The notes under the pieces were generated by a model that had not been told where the DNA came from, ran no database searches, and was given only the letters and a program-made list of their open reading frames with translations. 30,316 nt of DNA, taken from the UHGV virus genome UHGV-0320916, one strand, 5' to 3'. Shown here piece after piece: positions 1-29,602 of this stretch. Made by a program: the position numbers and the translations under genes. Source of the stretch: a virus. Position 1 is the first letter of the stretch. The number at the start of each line of letters is the position of its first letter.

Positions 1-485
1 GCTGGGCATTCCCGTGGCCATCGGTCACGCGGCGGACAATCTCGGCGATGCCGATTTTGTCGTCCGCACCGCCGCCATCCACGATGACAATCCCGAGATC
101 TCCGGCGCGGTCGCACGCGGCATCCCGGTCTTTGAGCGGGCGCAGGCGTGCGATGATGGTGTCGCCGTGGCCGACGCGGTAGCCGGAGTGGAGCAGCGGC
201 AGCGTACCGCCGATCATCACGGTGGGGTCGGTGTCCGCCGCCATGAAGATGTGTGTCGCCATGCTGGTGGTGGTCGTTTTGCCGTGCGTGCCGGAGATGC
301 ACAGGGCGTTGCGGTAGCCGTGCATGATCGCGCCCCACGCCTGCGCACGCTCAAAGACCGGGATGCCGCGTGCGACCGCGCCGGAGATCTCGGGATTGTC
401 GTCGTGGATGGCGGCGGTGCGGACGACAAAATCGGCATCGCCGAGATTGTCCGCCGCGTGACCGATGGCCACGGGAATGCCCAGC
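1..485. repeat. Inverted repeat: arm 1..150 is the reverse complement of arm 336..485 (2 mismatches, at ~85 and ~139), separated by a 185-bp spacer; left arm runs off the window edge
   Basis: Direct comparison: window 1-10 gctgggcatt equals revcomp of 476-485; identity holds to position 150/336 and breaks at 151/335. Confidence 0.9.
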
Positions 486-643
486 GCGCGCAGGTGCTCC
501 ACGGCGGGGGAGTCGTTCATGTCGCTGCCCTGCACGGAGAGTCCCATGGAATGCAGGACCTCGGCGAGAGGGCTCATCGACACGCCGCCGATGCCGGCGA
601 GGTGCGCCCGCTTGCCGGGTACGAGATAGGAATTGATATCCAT
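150..643 (-). pseudogene. murC: UDP-N-acetylmuramate--L-alanine ligase (MurC)-like, N-terminal ~165 codons only; reading frame breaks at ~150 where the inverted copy begins
   Basis: Minus-strand translation from ATG at 643: MDINSYLVPGKRAHLAGIGGVSMSPLAEVLHSMGLSVQGSD...ISGTHGKTTTTSMA..., matching the Mur ligase N-terminal Rossmann motif and the GTHGKTTTT P-loop; strongly GC-rich third positions unlike the rest of the window. Confidence 0.6.
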
Positions 644-736
644 AGCGTTTTCCTTCCCAAAAGCACACATTCCGACAGCCTTCGGCATTTGCCGAAATCG
701 GCGCGGAAGTGAATTGCAAAAATTTATCCCATATAG

Positions 737-3082
737 TCGGATGATGGCGCGCCGTTCCGCTACAGCTTCAGCGCCCTGAAGGACCGCCATAATGCCGTTG
801 AGGTGAACTGGATTGACCCGAACAACGGCTGGGAGACGGCGACAGAGCTTGTTGAAGATACGCAGGCCATTGCCCGTTACGGTCGTAACGTCACGAAGAT
901 GGATGCCTTTGGCTGTACCAGCCGGGGGCAGGCACACCGCGCCGGGCTGTGGCTGATTAAAACGGAACTGCTGGAAACGCAGACCGTGGATTTCAGCGTG
1001 GGCGCAGAAGGGCTTCGCCATGTGCCGGGCGATGTTATTGAAATCTGCGATGATGACTATGCCGGTATCAGCACCGGTGGTCGCGTGCTGGCGGTGAACA
1101 GCCAGACCCGGACGCTGACGCTCGACCGTGAAATCACGCTGCCATCCTCCGGTACCACGCTGATAAGCCTGGTTGACGGAAGTGGCAATCCGGTCAGCGT
1201 GGAGGTTCAGTCCGTCACCGACGGCGTGAAGGTAAAAGTGAGCCGTGTTCCTGACGGTGTTGCTGAATACAGCGTATGGGGGCTGAAGCTGCCGACGCTG
1301 CGCCAGCGACTGTTCCGCTGCGTGAGTATCCGTGAGAACGACGACGGCACGTATGCCATCACCGCCGTGCAGCATGTGCCGGAAAAAGAGGCCATCGTGG
1401 ATAACGGGGCGCACTTTGACGGCGAACAGAGTGGCACGGTGAATGGTGTCACGCCGCCAGCGGTGCAGCACCTGACCGCAGAAGTCACTGCAGACAGCGG
1501 GGAATATCAGGTGCTGGCGCGATGGGACACACCGAAGGTGGTGAAGGGCGTGAGCTTCCTGCTTCGCCTGACCGTGGCAGCGGATGACGGCAGTGAGCGG
1601 CTGGTCAGCACGGCCCGGACGACGGAAACCACATACCGCTTCACGCAACTGGCGCTGGGAAACTACAGGCTGACAGTCCGGGCGGCAAATGCCTGGGGGC
1701 AGCAGGGCGATCCGGCATCGGTATCGTTCCGTATTGCCGCACCGGCAGCGCCGTCGCGGATTGAGCTGACGCCGGGCTATTTTCAGATAACCGCCACGCC
1801 CCATCTTGCCGTTTATGATCCGACGGTACAGTTTGAGTTCTGGTTCTCGGAAAAGCGGATTGCGGATATCAGGCAGGTTGAAACCACAGCCCGCTATCTT
1901 GGCACGGCGCTGTACTGGATAGCTGCCAGTATCAATATCAAACCGGGCCATGATTATTATTTTTACATCCGCAGTGTGAACACCGTTGGCAAATCGGCAT
2001 TTGTGGAGGCTGTTGGCCAGCCGAGTGATGATGCATCCGGCTATCTGGATTTTTTCAAAGGCGAGATAGGGAAAAGCCATCTGGCTCAGGAGCTGTGGAC
2101 GCAGATTGATAACGGTCAGCTTGCGCCTGACCTGGCTGAAATCAGGACGTCCATTACGGATGTCAGCAATGAAATCACGCAGACCGTCAATAAGAAACTG
2201 GAAGACCAGAGTGCGGCAATTCAGCAGATACAGAAGGTTCAGGTTGATACAAATAATAACCTGAACAGCATGTGGGCTGTGAAGCTGCAGCAGATGCAGG
2301 ACGGACGCCTTTATATCGCGGGTATTGGTGCCGGTATTGAGAACACCCCTGACGGCATGCAGAGTCAGGTGCTGCTGGCGGCGGACAGGATTGCGATGGT
2401 TAATCCTGCGAATGGCAACACAAAGCCGATGTTTGTTGGTCAGGGCGATCAGATATTTATGAATGAAGTGTTCCTGAAATATCTGACGGCTCCCACCATT
2501 ACCAGCGGCGGTAATCCTCCGGCATTTTCCCTGACACCGGACGGGCGGCTGACGGCGAAAAATGCCGATATCAGCGGTAACGTGAATGCGAACTCCGGGA
2601 CGCTCAACAACGTCACGATTAACGAGAACTGCCGGGTTCTGGGAAAACTGTCCGCGAACCAGATTGAAGGCGATCTCGTTAAAACAGTGGGCAAAGCTTT
2701 CCCCCGGGACTCCCGTGCACCGGAACGGTGGCCATCAGGGACCATTACCGTCAGGATTTATGACGATCAGCCGTTTGACCGGCAGATTGTTATTCCGGCG
2801 GTGGCATTCAGCGGCGCTAAACATGAGAGAGAGCATACTGATATTTACTCCTCATGCCGTCTGATAGTGCGGAAAAACGGTGCTGAAATTTATAACCGTA
2901 CCGCGCTGGATAATACGCTGATTTACAGTGGCGTTATTGATATGCCTGCCGGTCACGGTCACATGACGCTGGAGTTTTCGGTGTCAGCATGGCTGGTAAA
3001 TGACTGGTATCCCACAGCAAGTATCAGCGATTTGCTGGTTGTGGTGATGAAGAAAGCCACCGCAGGCATCAGTATCAGCTGA
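737..3082 (+). CDS. J: Host specificity protein J (central tail fibre), 5'-truncated: frame opens after a TAG at 734-736 and encodes only the C-terminal ~780 aa; no start or N-terminal ~350 aa present
   Basis: Translation [59 protein letters not shown]... through ...[13 protein letters not shown] is collinear with lambda J C-terminal part; ORF track 803..3082 is the same frame. Confidence 0.85.
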
Positions 3083-3101
3083 ATTTTATAACCCCAATAC
3101 G

Positions 3102-3127
3102 GGCGTCAGAAATGACGCCTTTTTTAT
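3102..3127 (+). terminator. Intrinsic terminator-like hairpin after J (ggcgtca-gaaa-tgacgcc followed by a T run)
   Basis: Stem-loop plus T tract read directly from sequence. Confidence 0.5.
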
Positions 3128-3149
3128 TGCAGAAAAGCGAGAGGTAATT

Positions 3150-3749
3150 ATGCGTAAATTATGTGCTGTTATTCTGTCCGCAGTAGTCTGGCTGGTTGCC
3201 GCTGGTACGCCAGCGAGCGCAGCAGAGCATCAGTCCACACTAAGCGCCGGGTATCTTCAGACCCATACTGATATGCCAGGCAGTGATGACCTGAAGGGCA
3301 TTAACGTGAAATACCGTTATGAATTTACGGACACGCTGGGGCTGGTGACGTCATTCAGTTATGCCAATGCCAAAGATGAGCAAAAAACGCATTACAGCGA
3401 TACCCGCTGGCATGAAGATTCCGTGCGTAACCGCTGGTTCAGCATGATGGCGGGGCCATCTGTACGCGTGAATGAATGGTTCAGTGCTTATGCGATGGCG
3501 GGTATGGCTTACAGCCGTGTGTCGACCTTCTCCGGGGATTATCTCCGCGTAACTGACAACAAGGGGAAAACGCACGATGTGCTGACCGGAAGTGATGACG
3601 GTCGCCACAGCAACACGTCTCTGGCGTGGGGGGCTGGCGTGCAGTTTAACCCGACCGAATCCGTGGCCATTGATATTGCTTATGAAGGCTCCGGCAGTGG
3701 TGACTGGCGCACTGACGGTTTCATCGTGGGTGTCGGTTATAAATTCTGA
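3150..3749 (+). CDS. lom: Lom outer membrane protein (Ail/Lom family)
   Basis: 199 aa; MRKLCAVILSAV...signal peptide, ends ...DGFIVGVGYKF; near identical to lambda Lom; GAGG RBS 6 nt upstream. Confidence 0.9.
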   Translation: MRKLCAVILSAVVWLVAAGTPASAAEHQSTLSAGYLQTHTDMPGSDDLKGINVKYRYEFTDTLGLVTSFSYANAKDEQKTHYSDTRWHEDSVRNRWFSMMAGPSVRVNEWFSAYAMAGMAYSRVSTFSGDYLRVTDNKGKTHDVLTGSDDGRHSNTSLAWGAGVQFNPTESVAIDIAYEGSGSGDWRTDGFIVGVGYKF

Positions 3750-3775
3750 TTAGCCAGGTAACACAGTGTTATGAC

Positions 3776-3802
3776 AGCCCGCCGGTTCAGGCGGGCTTTT
3801 TT
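3776..3802 (+). terminator. Intrinsic terminator-like hairpin after lom (agcccgcc-ggttca-ggcgggct followed by tttttt)
   Basis: Stem-loop plus T tract read directly from sequence. Confidence 0.55.
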
Positions 3803-3813
3803 GTGGAGTGGAT

Positions 3814-6213
3814 ATGGCAGCAGTAAAAATCTCAGGTGTGCTGAAAGATTGTGCGGGAAAACCAATACAGAACTGCACTATTCAACTGAAGGCAAAGCGT
3901 AACAGCACCACGGTACTGGTGAACACGGTGGCTTCTGAAAATCCGGATGAAGCCGGACGTTACAGCATGGATGTTGAGTATGGCCAGTACAGCGTCACCC
4001 TGCTGGTTGAAGGTTTTCCGCCTTCACATGCCGGGACCATTACCGTCTATGAAGGCTCCAGACCAGGTACGCTGAATGATTTTCTCGGTGCCATGACGGA
4101 AGATGATGTCATGCCGGAGGCATTGCGTCGTTTTGAGGCAATGGTGGAAGAAGTGGCACGCAACGCCGAAGCCGCCTCTCAGAGCGCAGCGGCGGCAAAG
4201 AAATCCGAAACTGCAGCGGCATCATCGAAGAACGCGGCGAAAACCTCAGAAACGAATGCAGCTAATAGTGCACAGGCGGCAGCGACCTCAAAGACTGCAT
4301 CGGCAAACTCCGCGACAGCAGCCAAAAAATCAGAAACCAACGCGAAAAATAGCGAGACAGCCGCAAAGACGAGCGAAACCAACGCAAAGTCCAGCCAGAC
4401 GGCAGCGAAGACCAGCGAAACGAATGCCAAAGCCAGTGAAACTGCGGCAAAAAACAGCCAGGTTGCAGCAGCCCAAAGCGAGAGCGCGGCAGCCGGTTCT
4501 GCGACTTCAGCAACTGGATCAGCAACTGCTGCGGCTAACAGCCAGAAAGCTGCGAAGACGAGTGAAACTAACGCAAAGTCCAGCCAGACGGCAGCGAAGA
4601 CCAGCGAAACGAATGCCAAAGCCAGTGAAACTGCGGCGAAAAACAGTCAGGATGCAGCAGCCCAAAGCGAGAGTGCCGCAGCTGGTTCTGCAAGTGCGGC
4701 GGCTTCTTCTGCCTCTGCATCAGCCAACAGTCAAAAAGCTGCAAAAACCAGTGAAACCAACGCAAAGGCGAGCGAGACTGCGGCGGCTAACTCAGCGAAA
4801 GCATCGGCAGCAAGCCAGACGGCTGCAAAAGCAAGTGAAGACGCAGCCAGAGAGTATGCAAGCCAGGCTGCGGAGCCGTATAAACAAGTTTTGCAGCCGC
4901 TTCCCGATGTGTGGATACCGTTTAACGATTCACTGGATATGATTACGGGCTTTTCGCCGTCATATAAAAAGATTGTTATTGGTGATGATGAAATAACGAT
5001 GCCTGGCGATAAGGTTGTAAAGTTTAAACGCGCATCAACTGCCACATATATCAATAAATCAGGCGTATTTAGTGTTGCTAAAATTGATGAGCCACGATTT
5101 GAAAAAGAAGGTTTATTGATTGAAGGACAGCGCACTAACTATTTTGTTAAATCCAATATCCCCGCTGAATGGACGAGTACCAGCAATATCGATAAAACTA
5201 ATAATGGTGTTGATGAATTTGGTTTTTCATATGCCAAAATGCGAACAAAAGATAATATGACAGGACAATCATCTGCACTTAGTCTGCATACATGCAGTGC
5301 ATCCCGGGGGATTGATGTTAGTGGCGATAATAAGTATTGCACTGTTTCATGCAGGGTTAAAGCTCCTGATGGTCTTCGTTGTCGTTTGCGTTTTGAAAAA
5401 TACGATGGGTCGGTTTATACATTTTTAGGAGATGCTTATTTAACTTTCGGAACTCTGATAATAGAAAAAACTGGCGGAGCAGCCAATAGAATAGCAGCTA
5501 CTGCAACTAAAGATCCGGTTACAGGGTGGATTTTCTATGAGGCAACTATAGAAGCTGTTGAAGGTGAAACCTTAATTGGCGCAATGATTCAGTATGCGCC
5601 GAAAAAAGGTGGTGTAACTGAAGCGGGAGATTATATTTACCTTGCAACACCACAATTTGAAAACGGCGGATGTGCTTCATCTTTTGTTATTACGACAACT
5701 GTACCCGCAACCCGCTCCAGTGATATGGTGACGATCCCAACTGAAAATAATATCTATAATAGACCGCTTACGTGCCTGGTCGAGGTTAATAGAAATTGGG
5801 GCGATATTCCTCCTAATGTAGCACCGCGTATTTTTGATTTTTCTGGTGTGCCACCTATTGAGTCAATTACATACGCTTTTAACACAACTGAGAAATATTA
5901 CGGTCAGCTTTATATGCAAACTTATAAAGCGTCGACAAGTACTTACGTTTCTAGTGTGTTTGCTGGTCGAACTGATGTTCGAAAATTCATTGGTGGTTTT
6001 AATATTTATTCTGATGGTACTAAACGAGTAGTTTCTAACGGTGAGGCTACTAAAACCATGAAAACGGAGTGGACGGGCGTAAAAACATGGACCTTTATTC
6101 GAATTGGAGGTCAAGCCACATCGGGAACTCGTCATCTATTCGGCCATTTGAGAAATCTTCGTCTCTGGCATAAAGAATTAACTGATGCGCAAATGGGGGA
6201 GAGTATTAAATGA
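3814..6213 (+). CDS. stf: Side tail fibre protein Stf: lambda-like N-terminus, Ala/Ser/Thr-rich SETNAK-type repeat shaft, AT-rich divergent C-terminal domain with LamG/concanavalin-like signature at its end
   Basis: MAAVKISGVLKDCAGKPIQNCTIQLKAKRNSTT... matches lambda Stf N-terminus; repeated ...AAKTSETNAKASETAAKNSQ... units; C-terminus ...HLFGHLRNLRLWHKELTDAQMGESIK; ATG at 3814 preferred over track GTG at 3808. Confidence 0.85.
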   Translation: MAAVKISGVLKDCAGKPIQNCTIQLKAKRNSTTVLVNTVASENPDEAGRYSMDVEYGQYSVTLLVEGFPPSHAGTITVYEGSRPGTLNDFLGAMTEDDVMPEALRRFEAMVEEVARNAEAASQSAAAAKKSETAAASSKNAAKTSETNAANSAQAAATSKTASANSATAAKKSETNAKNSETAAKTSETNAKSSQTAAKTSETNAKASETAAKNSQVAAAQSESAAAGSATSATGSATAAANSQKAAKTSETNAKSSQTAAKTSETNAKASETAAKNSQDAAAQSESAAAGSASAAASSASASANSQKAAKTSETNAKASETAAANSAKASAASQTAAKASEDAAREYASQAAEPYKQVLQPLPDVWIPFNDSLDMITGFSPSYKKIVIGDDEITMPGDKVVKFKRASTATYINKSGVFSVAKIDEPRFEKEGLLIEGQRTNYFVKSNIPAEWTSTSNIDKTNNGVDEFGFSYAKMRTKDNMTGQSSALSLHTCSASRGIDVSGDNKYCTVSCRVKAPDGLRCRLRFEKYDGSVYTFLGDAYLTFGTLIIEKTGGAANRIAATATKDPVTGWIFYEATIEAVEGETLIGAMIQYAPKKGGVTEAGDYIYLATPQFENGGCASSFVITTTVPATRSSDMVTIPTENNIYNRPLTCLVEVNRNWGDIPPNVAPRIFDFSGVPPIESITYAFNTTEKYYGQLYMQTYKASTSTYVSSVFAGRTDVRKFIGGFNIYSDGTKRVVSNGEATKTMKTEWTGVKTWTFIRIGGQATSGTRHLFGHLRNLRLWHKELTDAQMGESIK
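4366..4790 (+). repeat. Direct repeats with 189-bp (63-codon) period inside stf: units starting ~4366 and ~4555 are near identical over ~138 bp, a third degenerate unit starts ~4744
   Basis: aagacgagcgaaaccaacgcaaagtccagccagacggcagcgaagaccagcgaaacgaatgccaaagccagtgaaactgcgg... recurs 189 bp later with a few substitutions. Confidence 0.85.
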
Positions 6214-6491
6214 AAGATTTAACGCTCAAATTTGCAGACAGGGCCGACTTTTCGGCCTTTATGGAGAGTATTGGCTATTATGATGACGAGTCGATGCAGG
6301 ATGATATTCTTATTGACGTGATAGGTAACGTGTACAAAGAAACCGGAGAACTGACTGAAGATGGCGAACCGGTATGTGTTAAGGAAGACGGATATTTTGT
6401 AAACGTGCGCATCATTAATGATGCAAAAAAATCGTCAATATTCGATAAATACGCGATTGTTGTTGAGCATCAACTTCGTGGCTGGATGTGA
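6210..6491 (+). CDS. Hypothetical acidic 93-aa protein, start overlaps stf stop (ATGA)
   Basis: ORF MKDLTLKFADRADFSAFMESIGYYDDESMQDD...; translational coupling to stf; no family recognised. Confidence 0.5.
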   Translation: MKDLTLKFADRADFSAFMESIGYYDDESMQDDILIDVIGNVYKETGELTEDGEPVCVKEDGYFVNVRIINDAKKSSIFDKYAIVVEHQLRGWM

Positions 6492-6500
6492 GGGAGACAA

Positions 6501-7205
6501 ATGGCTACATCGACAGTAATTCCAGGAGACATCACCACGTTAAAGGGAGATGTCAGTAAAGCCAAGGAAGATATTTCCTCAATTAACGGAAAAGTATCAA
6601 CGCTTCAGACTGATATGACCAGTGCAAAGCAGGATATCAGCACCAGATACACAAAAACTGAAGTTGATAATAAGCTGAAAAACAAAGTGGAAGTGAACGA
6701 TCTGGAAAGTGGTCGTTATGGTGGAGATTTTTACCCGCTGACTGGTCGTGAAGCGTTTTATTTGTGGGGATTGGGCACGACTACAGCGGCGGCAAACCTT
6801 TATCTTAATCCTGACCCCGCAATTTCGTCTGTACTGCGGTCCACATCGTCTATCCGCTATAAACATTCAGTAGAGACGATAGATTCGGAGCACGCCGATC
6901 TCATTTTCAAGATGCGCCCTGTGTGGTACAGGTCGCAATGCGAAAATGACAGGCGCGATTGGGGATTCTATGGATTGATTGCCGAGGAAGTAGGAGAAAT
7001 TGCCCCTCAGTTTGTTCACTGGCGACCAGCTAACGAGAATGATGCTCCTGAAGCTATTTCCAGCAATGGCCTTGTTGCCGAAGGTGTAATGTACGAACGT
7101 CTGGTTGTTCCACTGATTCACCATATCCAGAAACTGACTGAAAGAGTTGATGAACTTGAGTCAGAATTAAAGTTGTTATCAACTTCCCGAAGCGATATCG
7201 GATAA
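6501..7205 (+). CDS. Tail-fibre-like protein: N-terminal coiled-coil segment plus C-terminal domain resembling the intramolecular chaperone (peptidase S74-like) of phage fibres/tailspikes
   Basis: AGGGAG RBS; heptad-like N-terminus (LKGDVSKAKEDISSINGKVSTLQTDMTSAKQDIS); C-terminal ...SSIRYKHSVETID...MRPVWYR...GFYGLIAEEVGEIAPQFV...ELESELKLL pattern resembles that domain from memory. Confidence 0.5.
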   Translation: MATSTVIPGDITTLKGDVSKAKEDISSINGKVSTLQTDMTSAKQDISTRYTKTEVDNKLKNKVEVNDLESGRYGGDFYPLTGREAFYLWGLGTTTAAANLYLNPDPAISSVLRSTSSIRYKHSVETIDSEHADLIFKMRPVWYRSQCENDRRDWGFYGLIAEEVGEIAPQFVHWRPANENDAPEAISSNGLVAEGVMYERLVVPLIHHIQKLTERVDELESELKLLSTSRSDIG

Positions 7206-7215
7206 AGGAGGAGTA

Positions 7216-7509
7216 ATGGATATAACACCTTTCCTTCATGCACTTTGTGCTGTGGCTGCGCAGGTACTGGTTGGTCTTTTTACCGGAAACTGGGCTTACG
7301 GGGCGATAGCCGGTTGTACGTTCTTCATTGCTCGTGAACATACCCAGGCAGAATATCGCTGGATTGAAATGTTCGGGCATGGCAAGCGAATGAATATGCC
7401 GTGGTGGGGCGGTTTTGATCCGCGCGCGTGGGATGTAGCAAGTCTGATGGATTTTGCTGTGCCGGTGGTGGCGTGTCTGCTGGTCTGGCTGTTGGTTAAT
7501 CGTGGGTGA
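7216..7509 (+). CDS. Hypothetical small membrane protein (97 aa, 2-3 predicted hydrophobic helices)
   Basis: Strong AGGAGG RBS 5 nt upstream of ATG; hydrophobic stretches ALCAVAAQVLVGLF and FAVPVVACLLVWLLV. Confidence 0.55.
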   Translation: MDITPFLHALCAVAAQVLVGLFTGNWAYGAIAGCTFFIAREHTQAEYRWIEMFGHGKRMNMPWWGGFDPRAWDVASLMDFAVPVVACLLVWLLVNRG

Positions 7510-7529
7510 AAAAAGGTGAGCTGTATATG

Positions 7530-7658
7530 CAACGGAGGAAGAAACCTCGTTGCTGGAAGCCTGGAAGAAGTATCGGGTGTTGCTGAACCGTGTTGATACA
7601 TCAACTGCACCTGATATTGAGTGGCCTACGAACCCTGTCAGGGAGTAATCATTGGGAT
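7530..7658 (+). pseudogene. tfa: Tail fibre assembly protein (Tfa) C-terminal remnant, ~42 codons, no start codon
   Basis: Frame encodes [42 protein letters not shown], matching the lambda Tfa C-terminus; frame is closed by TGA at 7527-7529. Confidence 0.75.
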
Positions 7659-7702
7659 TATGCCGCAGCACGTCTTAAGCAAGAACGTGCTGCGGTTGGA
7701 TG

Positions 7703-8359
7703 CTATTTTTTCCCTGAAGCGGAAAACATTACTACAGTACCTTGAACCTTGGTTTTAACATTCTCGAAATGCTCTGAGAGTATATGTGTTAAGCCTTCTT
7801 CGGAATCTTTTGTGTTTGAAAAGATGCCTTTCTGATTGTAAATGCGCATCAGTTTTTGACCGAAGCTATTGTGCACAACTCCATCGCCAAGAATTGTGGC
7901 TCCGTATAGAGTTCCATCGTCAGTTAAGGCCTGCGCCGCATTGCGTATTACACAGCTTTTTGTAGATATATTTCCAGGCAGGCAGTGAAGAAGGTAAAAC
8001 ATGGAAATGGAATCAAATTGACCATGTAACGCCGCGGGATAAGGTTCAAAAACATCATGGCTAATTTTATGTTTAATTTTTGATTCCCCAGCCCTTGTAG
8101 ATGCCGCGTTCAGGCTAGCTTCGTTCAAATCCATTAAAGATATCAGACTACTCTCAGGTACGTGAGTAAGGTAAAACCCAGTTCCAACACCAATATCCAG
8201 ATGGTTGTTACCTAAATGTTCCAGAAAGTGTGGAAGAAGGTGTTCCTTTGTAGGACATCCCCATGCAAGCCGATTTGATACTCCCAAAACCCACCAGTCA
8301 TAAAGCTTTAGGGTAAGTGGTGTGTAAATTTTAGCCCCATCATCTGTGTTTTTTTTCAT
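7703..8359 (-). CDS. ybcY: Class I SAM-dependent methyltransferase (DLP12 YbcY-like)
   Basis: Motif I LDIGVGTGFY; ORF track 7703..8371, ATG at 8359 (MKKNTDD...) has better GGTG spacing; lies between two tfa remnants as in DLP12. Confidence 0.7.
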   Translation of the reverse strand: MKKNTDDGAKIYTPLTLKLYDWWVLGVSNRLAWGCPTKEHLLPHFLEHLGNNHLDIGVGTGFYLTHVPESSLISLMDLNEASLNAASTRAGESKIKHKISHDVFEPYPAALHGQFDSISMFYLLHCLPGNISTKSCVIRNAAQALTDDGTLYGATILGDGVVHNSFGQKLMRIYNQKGIFSNTKDSEEGLTHILSEHFENVKTKVQGTVVMFSASGKK

Positions 8360-8427
8360 TAATTTCACCATGTTATAGTTTTATTTGTGAATTAAATCAA
8401 TTATGGCGATGAATTACAAGGGGTTAA

Positions 8428-8726
8428 ATGCTGCCGCAGCATAGCGATATTGAAATAGCCTGGTATGCTTCGATACAGCAGGAGCCGAATGGCTGGAAGA
8501 CCGTCACCACACAGTTCTACATCCAGGAATTCAGTGAGTATATTGCGCCACTGCAGGATGCTGGGAAATCGCAACGGAGGAAGAAAGATCGTTGCTGGAG
8601 GCATGGAATAAATATCGGGTATTGTTGAATCGTGTTGATACATCAGTAGCTCTGGGTATGAAGCTGTTTGTAACTCATGTTACAGTAACAGCCATTACTA
8701 TCTCGAAGGTGCAAAATGTATATTGA
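8428..8726 (+). pseudogene. tfa: Tail fibre assembly protein (Tfa) homologue with a frameshift: ...[10 protein letters not shown] in one frame, [27 protein letters not shown]... in another
   Basis: Two frames each match consecutive parts of lambda Tfa (IAPLQDA then [23 protein letters not shown]); junction at ~8560-8570. Confidence 0.65.
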
Positions 8727-8839
8727 TTTGATATTTTATAAATTTACTTCGAATCTGGCACGTCAACTTTTGATTAAAGTAATATCAGTTTTCGGCGAAA
8801 AAAGGACCGTGTACATGAGACGATTTCATACAAGAATAA

Positions 8840-8889
8840 CAAAAATATGAATATGCTCCCAATGCAATATATGTTTTGCATTGGGAGCA
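8840..8889 (-). terminator. 13-bp perfect-stem hairpin (gctcccaatgcaa / ttgcattgggagc) 21 nt past the hydrolase stop, U-rich on the minus-strand side
   Basis: Stem 8855-8867 pairs with 8877-8889; minus-strand downstream sequence auauucauauuuuu. Confidence 0.45.
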
Positions 8890-8909
8890 AATAGCGGAAT
8901 ATTTTGAAA

Positions 8910-18759: not shown

Positions 18760-18900
18760 CTTATGTGGTTGGGTGATCTGGCTTTTCAGCCACGTAGTCG
18801 AGAGTCGACGTTGTTTAAAGAGCCTGCCAGTCTGTTCCATTTGGCTTCCAGCGTCCTGCTGACGGTTAAATAGTACGATATGTACTTTATGAGATCAATA
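18760..18900. promoter_or_regulatory. Candidate pL/oL region with nutL expected nearby; contains inverted repeats ACAAtttgTTGT and AGTACgatatGTACT that resemble repeats in the cI-cro intergenic region
   Basis: Position upstream of N on the minus strand; palindromes read from sequence; no promoter assignment verified. Confidence 0.35.
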
Positions 18901-19090
18901 CAATTTGTTGTAAGTTGGCGTGGTTTTTTATAACGCTTTGTATTTAATAGTGTTGTTTTTTAGCGTGGATGTATTGCCTCGGCGATGTAAGGAGAGATCA
19001 GAATTGCGTGGTTTAGTGGGTTGCATCTATTTATTTTTCAATAAATACAATTGGTTATGTGTTTTTAGGTGGGGCGATCGTGAGGCAAAG

Positions 19091-19117
19091 AAAACCCGGC
19101 GCTGAGGCCGGGTTTTT
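19091..19117. terminator. Bidirectional intrinsic terminator (aaaa-cccggc-gctgag-gccggg-ttttt) directly after the stop of the 258-aa gene
   Basis: GC stem flanked by A run and T run; analogous position to the lambda terminator after rexB. Confidence 0.7.
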
Positions 19118-19894
19118 CTAGGCTACCAGAGACTCAATCCAAGAGTCTCTGGTATGGAATGGCAACACTCGTGCGGTATCATTAAATAGTAGTGATAGTT
19201 GCTGTAGCTCAGGTGTTAACCCATCGCTGTCAACTATTACAAATCTATTGTTTATGTCAGGAACGACCTGACTTAAGTCAACAATCTTCCCAACTGTTGA
19301 GTGGGCAGTATTCCATCCCTTACTGCTGGCAAGGCTTACCGTAAACCCGCGTTTTGGTGGTATTAGTCGAGACTCATTCCTTAGCGTTAACGGAACAGTA
19401 ATGTTATGCCCACTAATACCTTTCACTTTTTCCTTTAAGGCTAGTCGCTTCCCAAGCCCTGCTGATTTTAAGTAACTGATTACACATTTTTCGAACTTAT
19501 CGTCTTTGACCTCAGCATACCAATCAGCAGTTTGGGCGGATGCAAGAATCCCACCACGAATAACATTTGCAGTTACCTGTCCAACGGACGACTCATCTGC
19601 CCACGCAGATATCTCTCCAGAGTCATTTAATGAAATTCCTTGCGAAGCGAGTGATGACCTGATCAGATCAATTTTCTTTTTAGTCAGGTGGATGCCGCGT
19701 GATTCAATATTCATCAATGTATCGCAGTAGTCTGTAACCCTATACTGACCACTCATCTCTTGAACGAATACACTTATCTGCTCACAATCATCGTAGTATG
19801 TGAAGGGACTAATAACGCGCAGCAACGTGTCGCTCATTGGGTGGCATTCAAACCCGAGCTTAGATATGACTGTTGAACACGTTACATTTCCCAT
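19118..19894 (-). CDS. Hypothetical 258-aa protein, second gene of a two-gene cassette in the rexB position; no recognised domain
   Basis: ORF MGNVTCSTVISKLGFECHPMSDTLLRVISPF...; start overlaps upstream gene by 13 nt; AT-rich relative to flanking lambda genes. Confidence 0.65.
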   Translation of the reverse strand: MGNVTCSTVISKLGFECHPMSDTLLRVISPFTYYDDCEQISVFVQEMSGQYRVTDYCDTLMNIESRGIHLTKKKIDLIRSSLASQGISLNDSGEISAWADESSVGQVTANVIRGGILASAQTADWYAEVKDDKFEKCVISYLKSAGLGKRLALKEKVKGISGHNITVPLTLRNESRLIPPKRGFTVSLASSKGWNTAHSTVGKIVDLSQVVPDINNRFVIVDSDGLTPELQQLSLLFNDTARVLPFHTRDSWIESLVA

Positions 19895-20424
19895 GATAGC
19901 TGACCTGATTTATCTTGATTAGGTAAAGGTGGGCTGCCTTCATATATGATATTAAGCGCCTCGCAAAAATAATTCCAGTAGCCAAAAAAATCATCTGGCT
20001 TGATGTTCGTTTCAAGCTTAAGTGCAATTTCTTCCCCAGCTGATTCGAAGTACATGTGATAGTGAGGACCTCGAGCCACCTCAACAAAATCTGGATGGTT
20101 CACTATAGATTTATTACGGTGTGGCTTGTTATCCGCAGGGTACGGGTCAAGCGCGTAAATGCGCCTGTCATGAAGAAACATCACAAATGAAATCTTCACT
20201 ATATCCACCCCTTCAACGATAGGAGGACGCCAGTGAAGCATAAATCTTATGCCTGTGATTGGGTTGCCAATTTCATCAAAAGCTTTGAGATCCAATTTAA
20301 ACCAGATTGGGGTTCGTCCCTCACTTCCGGTCCATGTAACTCCGCTAAAAGTTACTTTTTTCAAGCGAGTAATAGCTTGGTCAACCTCTTTCTGGGTAGG
20401 CTTAAAGTCGCCTTTTTTAGCCAC
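19882..20424 (-). CDS. Hypothetical 180-aa protein, first gene of a two-gene cassette in the rexA position downstream of cI; no recognised domain
   Basis: ORF MAKKGDFKPTQKEVDQAITRLKKVTFSGVTW...HRNKSIVNHPDFVEVARGPHYHMYF...; 46 bp downstream of cI stop, same strand. Confidence 0.65.
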   Translation of the reverse strand: MAKKGDFKPTQKEVDQAITRLKKVTFSGVTWTGSEGRTPIWFKLDLKAFDEIGNPITGIRFMLHWRPPIVEGVDIVKISFVMFLHDRRIYALDPYPADNKPHRNKSIVNHPDFVEVARGPHYHMYFESAGEEIALKLETNIKPDDFFGYWNYFCEALNIIYEGSPPLPNQDKSGQLSWEM

Positions 20425-20470
20425 TGATTCGTATCACCATGAAAGTTATTGTTAATACCTGTGCTTCTTG

Positions 20471-21130
20471 TCACCCAAACGTCTCTTCAGGCCACTGACT
20501 AGCGATAACTTTCCCCACAACGGAACAACTCTCATTGCATGGGATCATTGGGTATTGTGGGTTTAGTGGCTGTAGAAACACCTGACCGCTATCCCTGATC
20601 AGTTTCTTGAAGGTAAACTCATCACCACCAAGTCTGGCTATACAGAAATCGCCTGGCTCAACAGCCTGCTCAGGGTCAACCAGAATTAACATCCCGTCAG
20701 GAAAGCTGGGCTTGGAACCTGTTGGTGCGGTCATTGAGTTACCTTCAACCTCAAGCCAGAATGCAGAGTCACTGGCTTTTTTGGTTGTGCTTACCAATCT
20801 CTCCGCATCGCCTTTGGTAAAGGTTCTGAGTTCTGGAGAGAACATCCCAGCCTGAACATGAGAAAAAACAGGGTACTCATATTGTTTTTTAACTGGGGCC
20901 GATGAGTATTCGCCAACAGGTGAAAATGTCCCGTCGTGGTTGAATGATATGTTATCAATACCAAGGTATTTAAACACCACACCAATATCACTAAGAGATG
21001 GATGACGAGATCCGCGCAACCAGTGTCCAATCCCACCCTGCGTCATACCTAGCTCTTCGGCTAACTTCTCTTGAGTTATGCCGAGCTCTTTCATTCTGGA
21101 TCTAGCCAGTTCATACCATTTCATTTTCAT
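20471..21130 (-). CDS. cI: CI repressor: lambda-type C-terminal dimerisation/autocleavage domain with a non-lambda N-terminal HTH domain (hetero-immune)
   Basis: C-terminal ...[131 protein letters not shown] matches lambda CI; N-terminal HTH ...[23 protein letters not shown] differs; start codon uncertain (21124-21172). Confidence 0.85.
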
Positions 21131-21241
21131 GTCCTTATTATTACGCTTTGTACTGGAACCATCCATGCACAATGTGTATTTTTACTTGTATTCGTAAAGT
21201 ACATATTGTATTTTTTTATTCGTGTTTACTATGGAGGGCAT
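21131..21241. promoter_or_regulatory. Immunity-region operator/promoter (oR, divergent pRM/pR) between cI and cro; contains ACAA...TGTA-type inverted repeats
   Basis: Divergent cI/cro arrangement; candidate -35 TTTACT and -10 TATTGT 17 bp apart upstream of the cro RBS GGAGGG. Confidence 0.5.
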
Positions 21242-21457
21242 ATGAGCAACCTACGAAAATATCGAGAGTCACTGAATATCTCTCAAACAACACTTGCTAA
21301 GGCAGTTGGATGCACACAGGGAGCTATCGGACATTGGGAATCTGGTCGTCGCTTCCCAGACCTTAAAACATGCCGTGCTCTTGTTGCGTGCCTAAACAAG
21401 TTAGGCGCAAAAGTCAGTCTTGATGACGTGTTCCCGCCGGAACACAAAGCCGCTTAA
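21242..21457 (+). CDS. cro: Cro-like HTH repressor (not lambda Cro sequence)
   Basis: 71 aa MSNLRKYRESLNISQTTLAKAVGCTQGAIGHWESGRRFPD...; GGAGGG RBS; HTH similar to the cI N-terminal domain. Confidence 0.75.
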   Translation: MSNLRKYRESLNISQTTLAKAVGCTQGAIGHWESGRRFPDLKTCRALVACLNKLGAKVSLDDVFPPEHKAA

Positions 21458-21598
21458 TAAGCGGATCCGCTCTTTGTAACAACGGACATTCGTCCTACGT
21501 CGCTGAAAAGCGAGTTCCAAGATATCTGACCAACTAAGGCCATATGCGTTTCCACGCATACCTTTCAACTAACTATTCACTATTGGAAATCTTAAGAA

Positions 21599-21895
21599 AT
21601 GGAAAGAACAAGTTACAGCAAACTATCACAGCGTGACGTTGATCGCGCAGAAACAGATTTACTTATCAATCTGTCAGCTATTACCCAGCGCGGTCTGGCA
21701 AAGATGATTGGCTGTCATGAATCGAAGATAAGCAGAACGGACTGGAGATTTATTGCTTCGGTCTTGTGTGCTTTCGGAATGGCATCAGACATCAGTCCGA
21801 TTAGCAGGGCTTTTAAGTATGCGCTTGATGGACTCACCAATAAAAAACGCCCGGCGGCAACCGAGCGTTCTGAACAAATCCAGATGGAGTTCTGA
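21599..21895 (+). CDS. cII: CII transcriptional activator (lambda-like C-terminus, divergent N-terminus)
   Basis: ...LTNKKRPAATERSEQIQMEF matches the lambda CII C-terminus. Confidence 0.8.
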   Translation: MERTSYSKLSQRDVDRAETDLLINLSAITQRGLAKMIGCHESKISRTDWRFIASVLCAFGMASDISPISRAFKYALDGLTNKKRPAATERSEQIQMEF

Positions 21896-21927
21896 GGTCA
21901 TTACTGGATCTATCAACAGGAGTCATT

Positions 21928-22827
21928 ATGACAAATACAGCAAAAATACTCAACTTCGGCAGAGGTAACTTTGCCGGACAGGAGCGTAATGTGGCAGATC
22001 TCGATGATGGTTACGCCAGACTATCAAATATGCTGCTTGAGGCTTATTCGGGCGCAGATCTGACCAAGCGACAGTTTAAAGTGCTGCTTGCCATTCTGCG
22101 TAAAACCTATGGGTGGAATAAACCAATGGACAGAATCACCGATTCTCAACTTAGCGAGATTACAAAGTTACCTGTCAAACGGTGCAATGAAGCCAAGTTA
22201 GAACTCGTCAGAATGAATATTATCAAGCAGCAAGGCGGCATGTTTGGACCAAATAAAAACATCTCAGAATGGTGTATCCCTCAAAACGAGGGAAAATCCC
22301 CTAAAACGAGGGATAAAACATCCCTCAAATTGGGGGATTGCTATCCCTCAAAACAGGGGGACACAAAAGACACTATTACAAAAGAAAAAAGAAAAGATTA
22401 TTCGTCCGAGAATTCTGGCGAATCCTCTGACCAGCCAGAAAACGACCTTTCTGTGGTGAAACCGGATGCTGCAATTCAGAGCGGCAGCAAGTGGGGGACA
22501 GCAGAAGACCTGACCGCCGCAGAGTGGATGTTTGACATGGTGAAGACCATCGCGCCATCAGCCAGAAAACCGAATTTTGCAGGGTGGGCTAACGATATCC
22601 GCCTGATGCGTGAACGTGACGGACGTAACCACCGCGACATGTGCGTGCTGTTCCGCTGGGCATGCCAGGACAACTTCTGGTCCGGTAACGTGCTTAGCCC
22701 GGCCAAACTCCGCGACAAGTGGACCCAGCTCGAAATCAACCGTAACAAGCAACAGGCAGTCGTGACAGCCAGCAAACCAAAACTCGACCTGACAAACACA
22801 GACTGGATTTACGGGGTGGATCTATGA
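21928..22827 (+). CDS. O: Replication initiator O
   Basis: 299 aa MTNTAKILNFGRGNFAGQERNVADLDDGYARLSNMLLEAYSG..., matches lambda O. Confidence 0.93.
   Translation: MTNTAKILNFGRGNFAGQERNVADLDDGYARLSNMLLEAYSGADLTKRQFKVLLAILRKTYGWNKPMDRITDSQLSEITKLPVKRCNEAKLELVRMNIIKQQGGMFGPNKNISEWCIPQNEGKSPKTRDKTSLKLGDCYPSKQGDTKDTITKEKRKDYSSENSGESSDQPENDLSVVKPDAAIQSGSKWGTAEDLTAAEWMFDMVKTIAPSARKPNFAGWANDIRLMRERDGRNHRDMCVLFRWACQDNFWSGNVLSPAKLRDKWTQLEINRNKQQAVVTASKPKLDLTNTDWIYGVDL
22277..22400. promoter_or_regulatory. Replication origin inside O: four ~18-bp iterons (tccctcaaaacgaggga-type) followed by an A-rich tract
   Basis: Iterons at ~22277, 22297, 22321 and 22344, then acacaaaagacactattacaaaagaaaaaagaaaag. 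Confidence 0.85.
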
Positions 22828-23525
22828 AAAACATCGCCGCACAGATGGTTAACTTTGACCGTGAGCAGATGCGTCGGATCGCCAACAACATGCCGGAACA
22901 GTACGACGAAAAGCCGCAGGTACAGCAGGTAGCGCAGATCATCAACGGTGTGTTCAGCCAGTTACTGGCAACTTTCCCGGCGAGTCTGGCTAACCGTGAC
23001 CAGAACGAACTGAACGAAATCCGCCGCCAGTGGGTTCTGGCTTTCCGGGAAAACGGGATCACCACAATGGAACAGGTTAACGCAGGAATGCGCGTAGCCC
23101 GTCGGCAGAATCGACCATTTCTGCCATCACCCGGGCAGTTTGTTGCATGGTGCCGGGAAGAAGCATCCGTTATCGCCGGACTGCCAAACGTCAGCGAGCT
23201 GGTTGATATGGTTTACGAGTATTGCCGGAAGCGAGGCCTGTATCCGGATGCGGAGTCTTATCCGTGGAAATCAAACGCGCACTACTGGCTGGTTACCAAC
23301 CTGTATCAGAACATGCGGGCCAATGCGCTTACTGATGCGGAATTACGGCGCAAGGCTGCCGATGAACTGACCTGTATGACAGCGCGAATTAACCGTGGTG
23401 AGACGATACCTGAACCAGTAAAACAACTTCCTGTTATGGGCGGTAGACCTCTAAATCGTGCACAGGCTCTGGCGAAGATCGCAGAAATTAAAGCTAAGTT
23501 CGGACTGAAAGGAGCAAGTGTATGA
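22824..23525 (+). CDS. P: Replication protein P (DnaB helicase loader)
   Basis: 233 aa MKNIAAQMVNFDREQMRRIANNMPEQYDEKPQVQQVAQIINGVF..., matches lambda P; overlaps O stop. Confidence 0.93.
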   Translation: MKNIAAQMVNFDREQMRRIANNMPEQYDEKPQVQQVAQIINGVFSQLLATFPASLANRDQNELNEIRRQWVLAFRENGITTMEQVNAGMRVARRQNRPFLPSPGQFVAWCREEASVIAGLPNVSELVDMVYEYCRKRGLYPDAESYPWKSNAHYWLVTNLYQNMRANALTDAELRRKAADELTCMTARINRGETIPEPVKQLPVMGGRPLNRAQALAKIAEIKAKFGLKGASV

Positions 23526-23811
23526 CGGGCAAGAGGCAATTATTCATTACCTGGGGACGCATAATAGCTTCTGTGCGCCGGACGTTGCCGCGCTAACAGG
23601 CGCAACAGTAACCAGCATAAATCAGGCCGCGGCTAAAATGGCACGGGCAGGTCTTCTGGTTATCGAAGGTAAGGTCTGGCGAACGGTGTATTACCGGTTT
23701 GCTACCAGGGAAGAACGGGAAGGAAAGATGAGCACGAACCTGATTTTTAAGGAGTGTCGCCAGAGTGCCGCGATGAAACGGGTATTGGCGGTATATGGAG
23801 TTAAAAGATGA
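23518..23811 (+). CDS. ren: Ren protein
   Basis: ...AIIHYLGTHNSFCAPDVAALTGATVTSINQAAAKMARAGLLVIEGKVWRTVYYRFATREEREGKMSTNL..., matches lambda Ren. Confidence 0.85.
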   Translation: MYDGQEAIIHYLGTHNSFCAPDVAALTGATVTSINQAAAKMARAGLLVIEGKVWRTVYYRFATREEREGKMSTNLIFKECRQSAAMKRVLAVYGVKR

Positions 23812-23884
23812 CCATCTACATTACTGAGCTAATAACAGGCCTGCTGGTAATCGCAGGCCTTTTTATTTGGGGGAGAGGGAAGTC

Positions 23885-24325
23885 ATGAAAAAACTAACCT
23901 TTGAAATTCGATCTCCAGCACATCAGCAAAACGCTATTCACGCAGTACAGCAAATCCTTCCAGACCCAACCAAACCAATCGTAGTAACCATTCAGGAACG
24001 CAACCGCAGCTTAGACCAAAACAGGAAGCTATGGGCCTGCTTAGGTGACGTCTCTCGTCAGGTTGAATGGCATGGTCGCTGGCTGGATGCAGAAAGCTGG
24101 AAGTGTGTGTTTACCGCAGCATTAAAGCAGCAGGATGTTGTTCCTAACCTTGCCGGGAATGGCTTTGTGGTAATAGGCCAGTCAACCAGCAGGATGCGTG
24201 TAGGCGAATTTGCGGAGCTATTAGAGCTTATACAGGCATTCGGTACAGAGCGTGGCGTTAAGTGGTCAGACGAAGCGAGACTGGCTCTGGAGTGGAAAGC
24301 GAGATGGGGAGATCGGGCTGCATGA
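23885..24325 (+). CDS. ninB: NinB recombination protein
   Basis: MKKLTFEIRSPAHQQNAIHAVQQILPDPTKPIVVTIQERNRSLDQNRKLWACLGDV..., matches lambda NinB. Confidence 0.88.
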   Translation: MKKLTFEIRSPAHQQNAIHAVQQILPDPTKPIVVTIQERNRSLDQNRKLWACLGDVSRQVEWHGRWLDAESWKCVFTAALKQQDVVPNLAGNGFVVIGQSTSRMRVGEFAELLELIQAFGTERGVKWSDEARLALEWKARWGDRAA

Positions 24326-24849
24326 CTATCAAATCAAATACGCCAGCACACGACAAGGACTGCTGGCAAACGCCGCTTTGGCTTTTTGATGCACTGGATA
24401 TTGAGTTTGGATTCTGGCTGGATTCGGCAGCGAGCGACAAAAATGCTCTGTGTGCTCACTGGCTAACTGAGGCCGACGACGCGCTCAATTCTGAGTGGGT
24501 AAGCCACGGTGCAATCTGGAATAACCCACCGTACAGCAATATCAGGCCGTGGGTGGAAAAAGCCGCTGAGCAGTGCATACAACAGCGACAGACGGTAGTG
24601 ATGCTTGTGCCAGAGGATATGTCAGTCGGATGGTTCAGCAAGGCTCTGGAGAGTGTCGACGAAGTTCGCATTATCACTGATGGACGGATTAATTTTATCG
24701 AACCATCGACGGGGCTGGAGAAGAATGGAAACAGCAAAGGCTCCATGCTGCTGATTTGGCGACCGTTCATCAGTCCTCGACGGATGTTTACTACCGTATC
24801 CAAAGCGGCATTGATGGCGATCGGGCAGGGCGTCAGGAGGGCTGCATGA
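24322..24849 (+). CDS. Phage-type DNA N6-adenine methyltransferase (Dam-like)
   Basis: [31 protein letters not shown]...; NPPY catalytic motif ([10 protein letters not shown]); ATGA overlap with ninB stop. Confidence 0.8.
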
Positions 24850-25022
24850 GACGACAGCGACGAAGCATCACCGACATAATCTGCGAAAACTGCAAATACC
24901 TTCCAACGAAATGCTCCAGAAATAAACGCAAGCTAATCCCAAAAGAATCTGACGTAAAAACCTTCAATTACACAGCCCACCTGTGGGATATCCGGTGGCT
25001 AAGATATCGTGCGAGGAAATGA
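24846..25022 (+). CDS. ninE: NinE
   Basis: [58 protein letters not shown]; ATGA overlap with the methyltransferase stop. Confidence 0.7.
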
Positions 25023-25366
25023 CAATGGATTATTCACAGTTAAGTGATTTTGAAATTAACAGAATGGTAGGAGACATAATTTTTAAAGGCCTTTGGGCAA
25101 GTAAACCGGAAACATCAGGGAATAACACCAACAAATGGTATTACGGAAATGCTGATACAACTTTTGAGCCATTAAATCATTTGCCTGACTACTGCAATGA
25201 TCCGAGCGCTTCATGGCCGATTATTGAGAAATACAGGATTTCTATCTTAGACCAGTTAACTGAATGGTGTGTGGATGCAAAAGGCGTAAGCCCAATATTT
25301 GATACCAGACCTCTCCGCGCCGCCATGATTGTCTTTCTCCTGATGCAGGAGGCCAATAATGCTTAG
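25019..25366 (+). CDS. Hypothetical nin-region protein (115 aa)
   Basis: [76 protein letters not shown]...; ATGA overlap with ninE stop. Confidence 0.55.
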
Positions 25367-25553
25367 CCCATCTCAATCCCTTCAATACCTGAAAGAAAGC
25401 ATAGAGCGGGCTTCAATGTGCACAGAGTGGATTCTATCTAGGTTTAGCGCATACAGAAGATTGCCGGTAAAGGGCATGCCAAGCAAGTCGATGCTGCATA
25501 TGCAAAAGAATGCGCGCTGGAAGGTATGGCGAGAACACAGGTTATGTGGCTAA
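25359..25553 (+). CDS. Hypothetical nin-region protein (64 aa)
   Basis: ORF overlapping the previous stop; [29 protein letters not shown]... Confidence 0.4.
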
Positions 25554-25572
25554 AAGAGGGGGTTATTAAGGC

Positions 25573-25935
25573 GTGAATACCTACAGCATCACATTACCCT
25601 GGCCTCCGAGCAATAATCGCTATTACCGCCATAATCGCGGGCGCACGCACGTCAGCGCAGAGGGGCAGGCATACCGCGATAACGTCGCCCGAATCATTAA
25701 AAACGCAATGCTGGATATCGGCCTGGCTATGCCTGTGAAAATCCGCATTGAGTGCCACATGCCGGATCGCCGTCGCCGTGACCTGGATAATCTGCAAAAA
25801 GCCGCTTTTGACGCACTCACTAAAGCAGGTTTCTGGCTGGATGATGCTCAGGTCGTTGATTACCGCGTTGTGAAGATGCCTGTTACCAAAGGTGGGAGGC
25901 TGGAACTGACCATCACCGAAATGGGGAATGAATGA
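25573..25935 (+). CDS. rusA: RusA Holliday-junction resolvase (GTG start)
   Basis: 120 aa [45 protein letters not shown]..., matches E. coli DLP12 RusA. Confidence 0.92.
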
Positions 25936-26072
25936 TGTTTGAGTTTAATATGGCAGAACTTCTTCGCCACCGCTGGGGGCGTCTGCGCTTATATCGTTTC
26001 CCCGGTTCTGTTTTGACCGATTACCGAATACTGAAGAATTACGCCAAAACCCTGACAGGAACAGGAGTATGA
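25932..26072 (+). CDS. ylcG: YlcG-like small protein (46 aa)
   Basis: [46 protein letters not shown]; ATGA overlap with rusA stop; not in ORF track (short). Confidence 0.7.
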
Positions 26073-26157
26073 AGTCAGAGATAACAATCAACTAATACTG
26101 TTTTGTTGATTTTTGCTTGTAATTGGCGTTCTGGTCTGATTTTTGTGGAGTAAGTTG

Positions 26158-26541
26158 ATGCGTGATATTCAGATGGTTCTTGAGCGTTGGGGTGCGTGGG
26201 CGGCTAATAATCATGAAGATGTGACCTGGTCGTCCATTGCCGCCGGTTTTAAGGGATTAATTCCTTCAAAAGTAAAATCTCGCCCGCAATGTTGTGACGA
26301 TGACGCGATGATCATTTGCGGGTGCATGGCCCGTCTGAAAAAGAACAACAGCGATTTACACGATTTATTAGTAGATTATTATGTATGTGGTATGACATTC
26401 ATGTCACTGGCAAGTAAGCATTGCTGCTCGGATGGTTATATCGGGAAAAGGTTACAGAAGGCTGAGGGCATAATTGAAGGGATGTTAATGGCATTAGATA
26501 TCCGGTTAGATATGGATATCGTTGCTAATAATTCTAATTGA
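26158..26541 (+). CDS. quuD: Late-gene antiterminator Q (DLP12 QuuD type)
   Basis: [60 protein letters not shown]...; ORF track begins at 26143. Confidence 0.85.
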
Positions 26542-26562
26542 TATGCAATTGTTTACTAAAAG

Positions 26563-26590
26563 TTATTAAAAATGGGGCGTGGAAACGCCC
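26563..26590 (-). terminator. Hairpin ggggcg-tggaaa-cgcccc followed on the minus strand by a U run; candidate nmpC terminator
   Basis: Minus-strand read ggggcguuuccacgcccc auuuuuaau. Confidence 0.45.
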
Positions 26591-26678
26591 CCAAAATAAA
26601 GGGTAATATATAACAGAAGGTTTATATAGTAAGAAGCAAGGTAGTGCTTCTAAAGGAAGTGGCTTGAGGGCTCCACTT

Positions 26679-26720: not shown

Positions 26721-26729
26721 TAAGTCAGA

Positions 26730-29571: not shown

Positions 29572-29602
29572 AGCTGCCCATATCGATGGGCAACTCATGC
29601 AA

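Follow-up and report, generated by a model that had tools for sequence, protein, structure and literature searches.

Oscillibacter murC DNA folded back and joined to the middle of gene J at the tip of a lambdoid phage contig: a probable artefactual chimera

The window, that is, the whole stretch of 30,316 nucleotides recorded as virus genome UHGV-0320916, is for the most part a lambdoid phage of the argU/intD type, whose genuine sequence corresponds to the contig body at 738–30316. From position 738 onward it is 99.5% identical at the nucleotide level to Escherichia phage PhiR55_1, starting at nucleotide 1136 of gene J and continuing through lom; moreover, 738–6032 shows 99.7% identity to the argU prophage in the genome of E. 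coli LST200A (NZ_CP110858.1), in which J is intact (3603740–3607219) and the usual tail genes lie upstream of it, and 11957–30316, carrying intD, the recombination, immunity, replication and lysis genes and iss, is 99.98–100% identical to the same prophage. At its right end the window stops some 220–270 nt into a copy of IS3. The phage part contains an attP-type join, with the att core at 11954–12003, so that free phage DNA was probably present in the source.

The first 737 bases are clean sequence, with neither Ns nor low-complexity stretches, and have a GC content of 64.5%, compared to 46.4% in the remainder of the window. A scan of 1–1200 for promoters and terminators gave no meaningful signal, the apparent terminator matches being mirrored copies within the arms of an inverted repeat described below. 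The features of this left end, together with the only integrase found, are the following; L001 denotes the murC locus of Oscillibacter sp. MSJ-31 (NZ_JAHLPT010000002.1), in which the matching stretch lies at about 81.7–82.3 kb.

1–150, plus strand: Oscillibacter murC codons 53–103 in sense orientation, haplotype "B" (L001 3159–3308, forward, 98.0% identity)
14–712, plus strand: composite open reading frame of 232 aa, made of 46 sense MurC residues (58–103, from arm 1) followed by antisense murC
150/151: junction A, where L001 3308 (forward) is joined to L001 3494 (reverse), with at most 1 nt in common (G150)
150–643, minus strand: Oscillibacter murC codons 1–165, haplotype "A", encoding the N-terminal Mur ligase domain followed by ~30 residues from the start of the middle domain
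644–737, minus strand: 94 nt from the native spacer upstream of Oscillibacter murC (L001 2907–3000)
737/738: junction B, where Oscillibacter L001 2907 is joined to J nucleotide 1136; blunt, with 0 nt of microhomology
738–3082, plus strand: start of the phage segment, the 3' two-thirds (codons 379–1159) of the lambdoid tail-tip gene J, assigned by comparison with PhiR55_1 and LST200A and by Pfam
746–753: AscI site GGCGCGCC, native to J, 8 nt inside the phage side
12017–13180: integrase, belonging to the phage's own att module, 11 kb from the junction

The original prediction, which recognised a MurC N-terminus on the minus strand at 150–643 with GC-biased codons foreign to the rest of the window, is borne out on both counts: the fragment matches Pfam Mur_ligase (PF01225, E=4.6e-25, residues 14–110), and its GC3 is 0.87, against 0.38–0.64 for the phage genes. 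The donor taxon, which a database search had been expected to name, was found by a protein-guided scan covering one genome per species; the 165 aa of the fragment are 100% identical to the protein of Oscillibacter sp. MSJ-31, below which the same scan returned a graded series of Oscillospiraceae, and 150–737 is the reverse complement of L001 2907–3494, with 98.6% nucleotide identity. Oscillibacter is a strictly anaerobic gut Firmicute. In MSJ-31 the native murC has 456 codons and the three complete Mur ligase domains, and it follows a divergently oriented gene for a nucleotidyltransferase of the poly(A) polymerase family (Pfam PolyA_pol and HD); in the window the middle domain (PF08245) is limited to about 30 residues, the C-terminal domain (PF02875) is missing and the frame is broken at 150. 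The murC piece is thus a fragment, not a gene, 64% of the gene being missing. The open reading frames flanking murC in MSJ-31 have no Pfam match to mobile-element proteins, and the locus is ordinary housekeeping DNA. Carriage of the piece on a plasmid or other mobile element was also considered and rejected, the only matches among 72,556 plasmids being murC homologues of about 65% identity in Sinorhizobium, Streptomyces and a few other genera.

On the other side of junction B the sequence enters J at nucleotide 1136, i.e., at the second position of codon 379 of a gene of 1159 codons. The switch into the middle of J without a start codon or upstream tail genes, previously placed at about 737, can thus be located exactly at 737/738. 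Two in-frame stops stand immediately 5' of the entry point, and the first 378 codons of J, its start codon and the upstream tail genes (I, K, L and others), which are present in both PhiR55_1 and LST200A, are all missing from the window. The Pfam matches of the J fragment are Phage-tail_3 (partial), Ig_J, Ig_J_second, Phage_Tail_Tip and Ig_GpJ_C, so that the C-terminal Ig-like, tail-tip fibre and receptor-binding domains are present (PF24421, PF24489, PF09327 and PF12421). The AscI site at 746–753 does exist, as had been pointed out, but it does not sit at the junction; the homologous position of PhiR55_1 (locus position 3009) has the same site, and a second AscI site occurs in the window at 11993. 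An origin of the join at AscI was accordingly rejected, the site being native to J and 8 nt away from the break.

J is a multi-copy gene in E. coli, with a median of 2–3 places per genome. A sharp copy-number boundary at 738 was looked for and rejected, since both halves of the gene are multi-copy (a median of 3 versus 2 places per genome for the parts on either side of 738, the 5' part being found at 3 places in LST200A); the multi-copy state of J therefore supports the notion of a repeat region only in general and leaves the exact position 738 unexplained. The coexistence of a multi-copy J at one end of the contig and of IS3 at the other is typical contig-break behaviour.

The internal structure of the Oscillibacter DNA is that of a fold-back. 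A repeat search returned an inverted repeat between 1–150 and 336–485, with 148/150 complementary positions and a spacer (loop) of 185 nt, in agreement with the 150-nt inverted copy with two mismatches described earlier; the arm length of 150 nt is a lower bound, since arm 1 starts at the first base of the window and is cut by its edge. Followed from junction B, the path begins 94 nt upstream of murC and proceeds as far as codon 165, where the strand flips, and then leads from codon 103 back to codon 53. The plus-strand reading frame at 14–712 is, as had been recognised, a composite of one genuine MurC segment and antisense sequence; an exact-product look-up found no identical product on record, and the frame is spurious, an accident of the fold-back and not a gene. 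The same kind of look-up was equally negative for the run-off MurC fragment, the J fragment and two Stf start variants.

Base-by-base comparison places the two mismatches between the arms at 85/401 and 139/347, and both coincide with natural polymorphism of the locus. If an arm position is called polymorphic when the minor allele is counted at least 3 times among 40 close full-length contigs, 8 of the 150 positions are polymorphic, and both arm-to-arm differences fall on such sites, each arm carrying one of the two standing population alleles; the chance that two random changes would match in this way is roughly (8/150 x 1/3)^2, or about 3e-4. Five independent contigs from gut metagenomes (L104, L106, L114, L128 and L132) match the 150-mer of arm 1 exactly, and seven other independent contigs (L092, L094, L099, L101, L122, L124 and L125) match that of arm 2 (336–485). 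Four of the arm-1 contigs (L106, L114, L128 and L132) differ from 150–737 at 8–9 of 588 sites, and the fifth, L104, is far more divergent from it. Compared with the independent contigs, 1–737 contains no private base, so that no divergence after the event is apparent. Two origins of the mismatches were rejected on these grounds, namely a copy made within a single molecule and mutated later, and one molecule folded on itself and altered by sequencing errors. The arms are thus two natural Oscillibacter strain haplotypes rather than one duplicated molecule: either the same locus of two co-circulating strains was joined, or a consensus took up the alleles of the other strain on the second pass.

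It could be argued that the fold-back is a genuine inverted duplication of an Oscillibacter strain, only the join to J being artefactual, because two differences between the arms are what diverged paralogous copies might show. Such an origin is hardly credible: murC would be interrupted at codon 165, the alleles at both sites of difference circulate in the population instead of being private, and the 31-mer spanning junction A occurs in none of the loci compared (L001–L135), among them 52 contigs from metagenomes and 80 loci from genomes.

The two junctions have in common an almost complete lack of homology between the joined partners. At junction B the native Oscillibacter sequence goes on as ATAATACG, and in the phage parent the bases before the break are ...GTGATGC; no base is common to the two in register. 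Such partial similarities as the parents have at the two junctions are displaced by 3–5 nt from register. Template switching driven by microhomology was consequently rejected, the parents sharing 0 nt in register at B and at most 1 nt at A. The natural inverted repeat nearest to junction A, GCGATCATG (L001 3313–3321) and CATCATCGC (3486–3494), is complementary at 8 of 9 positions and lies 5 nt out of register. Direct repeats in 1–3000 are limited to weak two-copy matches, none of which flanks the junction.

A further peculiarity is the 8-mer GATGATGG, which is found past both junctions at an equal offset (152–159 and 740–747); the frequency of such a coincidence in random breakpoint pairs is 2.2e-4, a figure calculated post hoc. 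The shared 8-mer may be due to chance, as it consists of ATC-ATC/GAT-GAT codon doublets, or to a sequence bias of the step in which fragment ends are made; it is left unexplained by a chimeric origin of the left end and counts against it. BccI (CCATC 4/5) would cut exactly at 149/150 and 737/738, and a C^CGG cut also falls on phage position 738, but ends generated by restriction are not supported, the right-hand ends of 1–150 and 150–737 being devoid of such sites; we take the pattern to follow from the shared motif and give it no weight as evidence.

The lack of homology also bears on the question of whether the structure arose in the computer only, i.e., whether unrelated graph tips were glued together by an assembler, a scaffolder or a merging or polishing step and no chimeric molecule ever existed. 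The position of the structure at the contig tip, the IS3 repeat at the other contig end and the presence of alleles of two strains in the arms, which is expected when a graph traversal passes through a strain bubble, are all consistent with this possibility, which is nevertheless unlikely. De Bruijn and overlap joins require a shared k-mer or an overlap, and the parents have 0 nt in common at B and at most 1 nt at A; since there is no shared k-mer at the junctions, the graph alone could not have joined the pieces, and at least one read-level chimera per junction would be needed. In addition, a tip ending at the end of the bubble branch of the polymorphism at 85 would imply an inferred k of 84–85, a value that to our knowledge is not a default in common metagenome assemblers; as a guide to the assembler actually used, this estimate was set aside as uninformative.

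The join was then sought in independent sequences. The first 760 bases have no match among 5,426 complete E. coli genomes, 1–737 has none among 50,697 phage records, the join is not found in the 72,556 plasmids, and the strings spanning junction A and junction B are both missing from IMG/VR. When human-gut metagenomes were scanned with the 27 nt preceding junction B on the Oscillibacter side, all of the 52 contigs retrieved ran on natively (ATAATAC...), with neither the J entry nor junction A in any of them (0/52). The mirror test on viral contigs, in which the query was the 35 nt immediately following junction B on the phage side, returned native J upstream (...AGTAATGTGGTGATGC) in 120/120 contigs among the matches listed, and junction B in none of these 120.

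These searches weigh on the proposal that the window is a real molecule, namely a lambdoid phage or prophage that became defective when illegitimate recombination put Oscillibacter DNA in the place of its head genes and of its tail genes as far as the middle of J. The sequence is indeed clean, without Ns or low complexity, E. coli and Oscillibacter both inhabit the gut, and the attP-type join indicates that free phage DNA was probably present; all the same, a real molecule of this kind is very improbable. The donor belongs to another phylum and the join is homology-free and missing from all the independent data sets queried; the two haplotypes in the arms would need two donors; no target-site duplication, att site, transposase or integrase is seen at the join; and a phage without residues 1–378 of J and the upstream morphogenesis genes could not propagate. 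The variant in which free DNA of an E. coli lambdoid phage captured Oscillibacter chromosomal DNA by end-joining in the gut is to be regarded as equally far-fetched. Of the two possibilities that the original prediction had left side by side, an artefact is therefore favoured by the lack of homology, the uniqueness of the join and the two haplotypes, and a real rearrangement is strongly argued against.

On the basis of the sequence comparisons, the left-end structure is almost certainly not biological. The reading that we prefer, with a probability of about 85%, is that the first 737 bases are a non-biological chimera of three pieces at the contig tip, which arose through chimeric library molecules carried into the assembly. 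The source would have been a gut sample in which DNA of an E. coli phage occurred together with that of two or more Oscillibacter strains; the phage sequence would have run out inside J, a member of a multi-copy family, and the tip would have been extended through rare chimeric library molecules or reads. At junction B, phage DNA would then have been attached to an Oscillibacter fragment intermolecularly and without homology, by ligation or by a template jump. Junction A would be a fold-back in which the strand was switched inside the Oscillibacter murC locus, and joins of this kind result either from phi29 amplification or from the end-repair of partly single-stranded fragments pairing with a similar molecule. 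The second pass over the same 150 nt would have been filled with the alleles of the other strain, and the "inverted repeat" would show its two mismatches because two Oscillibacter strains were present. Neither the murC piece nor the truncated J nor the composite reading frame is predicted to be expressed or functional.

The proposed chimera may be compared with artefacts of known origin. Inverted joins with an intervening deletion make up 85% of MDA chimeras, proximal segments being those most commonly joined, and 93.5% of the proximal inverted ones have at least 2 bp of complementarity at the junction, which in intermolecular joins (more than 10 kb apart) is often missing (Lasken & Stockwell 2007, PMC1855051). 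Junction A resembles these products in that two proximal segments of the same locus are joined in inverted orientation with 185 nt deleted between them, and junction B in that it is devoid of complementarity, as intermolecular MDA joins often are; on the other hand, the complementarity at junction A amounts to at most 1 nt, and two strain haplotypes are present here, whereas the MDA mechanism is mainly intramolecular. The two haplotypes argue against a single MDA template, unless the assembler mixed the strains. Strand-split artefact reads and PDSM library chimeras arise at the end-repair step, when partial single strands from molecules of similar sequence anneal to each other (PMC6344851, PMC10908179). 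The opposite-strand alignment within a few hundred bases is a feature shared with the fold-back described here, and the pairing of similar molecules would permit one locus to be derived from two co-occurring strains; this route would thus explain why the same locus was joined from two strains. Chimeras of the latter type are, however, anchored on a short inverted repeat at the junction, whereas here the nearest one (8/9) is 5 nt off register. The lack of at least 2 bp of complementarity at junction A and the out-of-register position of the inverted repeat both count against a chimeric origin.

Chimeric contigs joining different genomes in metagenomes offer a third comparison: as in these, two unrelated members of a community are found in one contig, and the foreign part is short, lies at the tip and adjoins a repeated gene family. 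Typical graph chimeras are joined via a shared conserved sequence, which is absent from the join analysed here. Finally, specialised transduction (lambda gal, lambda bio) likewise places non-phage DNA next to phage DNA in the stead of phage genes. The DNA carried by a transducing phage comes from either side of the attachment site in the phage's own host; in the window the DNA is that of a Firmicute, joined in the middle of J far from att, folded back and derived from two strains.

Were the molecule real, it would represent a cross-phylum capture of DNA by a coliphage. On the reading preferred here, that of an artefactual chimera, the relevance of the finding lies in quality control and not in biology: left untrimmed in a database, the contig would suggest a coliphage with a Firmicute cell-wall gene and would give rise to a false "auxiliary metabolic gene", a false call of horizontal transfer, a false host link and a spurious 232-aa open reading frame, so that trimming at 737/738 is warranted. 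The arms of an inverted repeat carrying the alternative standing alleles of co-occurring strains would also provide a sign, readable without the reads, of fold-back artefacts in metagenomes.

The two chimeric junctions, namely the fold-back within the Oscillibacter murC segment and the join between this segment and phage gene J, share the 8-mer GATGATGG, found at 152-159 and at 740-747 and hence at an identical offset after each of them; the chance of such a coincidence is about 2e-4, a figure calculated post hoc. In the murC gene of Oscillibacter sp. MSJ-31 (locus L001), GCGATCATG / CATCATCGC (L001 3313-3321 and 3486-3494) form a naturally occurring inverted repeat, imperfect (8/9) and situated 5 nt away from the breakpoint of the fold-back. 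This repeat could have seeded the strand pairing, but its register does not fit the join seen in the window. When compared with the public contigs carrying the Oscillibacter side (L084-L135), window 150-737 is a mosaic: L107 matches 150-335 perfectly and L122 matches 336-737 perfectly; a perfect match over the whole of 150-737 was found in none of these loci. Natural recombination would be consistent with such a mosaic, and so would a consensus drawn across co-occurring strains.

Features of the phage portion and of its right end
3808-6213: stf, side tail fibre, with imperfect peptide repeats especially at 4100-4950
6501-11534: b-region with several cargo genes
6501-7205: ORF with a Peptidase_S74 chaperone domain (b-region)
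7703-8371, minus strand: SAM-dependent methyltransferase (b-region)
8910-10394, minus strand: alpha/beta hydrolase, 494 aa, TAP-like C-terminus (b-region)
10581-11534, minus strand: ompT, omptin OmpT (b-region)
11954-12003: attP-type core, 50 nt, equal to the 3' part of tRNA-Arg (argU)
12017-13180, minus strand: intD
~26730-27872, minus strand: cargo porin of OmpC/NmpC type, between Q and the lysis genes (from the LST200A annotation)
~29603-29896, minus strand: cargo gene iss, serum-survival lipoprotein, after Rz (from the LST200A annotation)

The stf product contains a long run of Ala/Ser/Thr-rich imperfect peptide repeats of the pattern ...KTSETNAKxSxTAA..., and the AT skew within the gene is very strong (0.355 over 4001-5000); no record of the protein sequence was present in the exact-match gene index. 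Window 6033-11956 is missing from E. coli LST200A, which carries a closely related argU prophage and in which, at this place, the truncated tail-fibre gene adjoins an IS3 copy. An IS3-family element, located in LST200A between iss/rzpD and the terminase genes, is entered at the right end of the window, the sequence stopping ~220-270 nt into it (~30050-30316); the contig break is thereby of the typical repeat-induced kind and suggests that the window is an entire contig.

The state of the phage DNA is indicated by the att core, which includes the second AscI site (11993) and directly links the ompT side to the intD side, these being respectively the attR and the attL sides in E. coli LWY6. The arrangement is attP-type, so the phage DNA was not a single integrated prophage: it was in an excised, circular or concatemeric state, or in that of a tandem lysogen.
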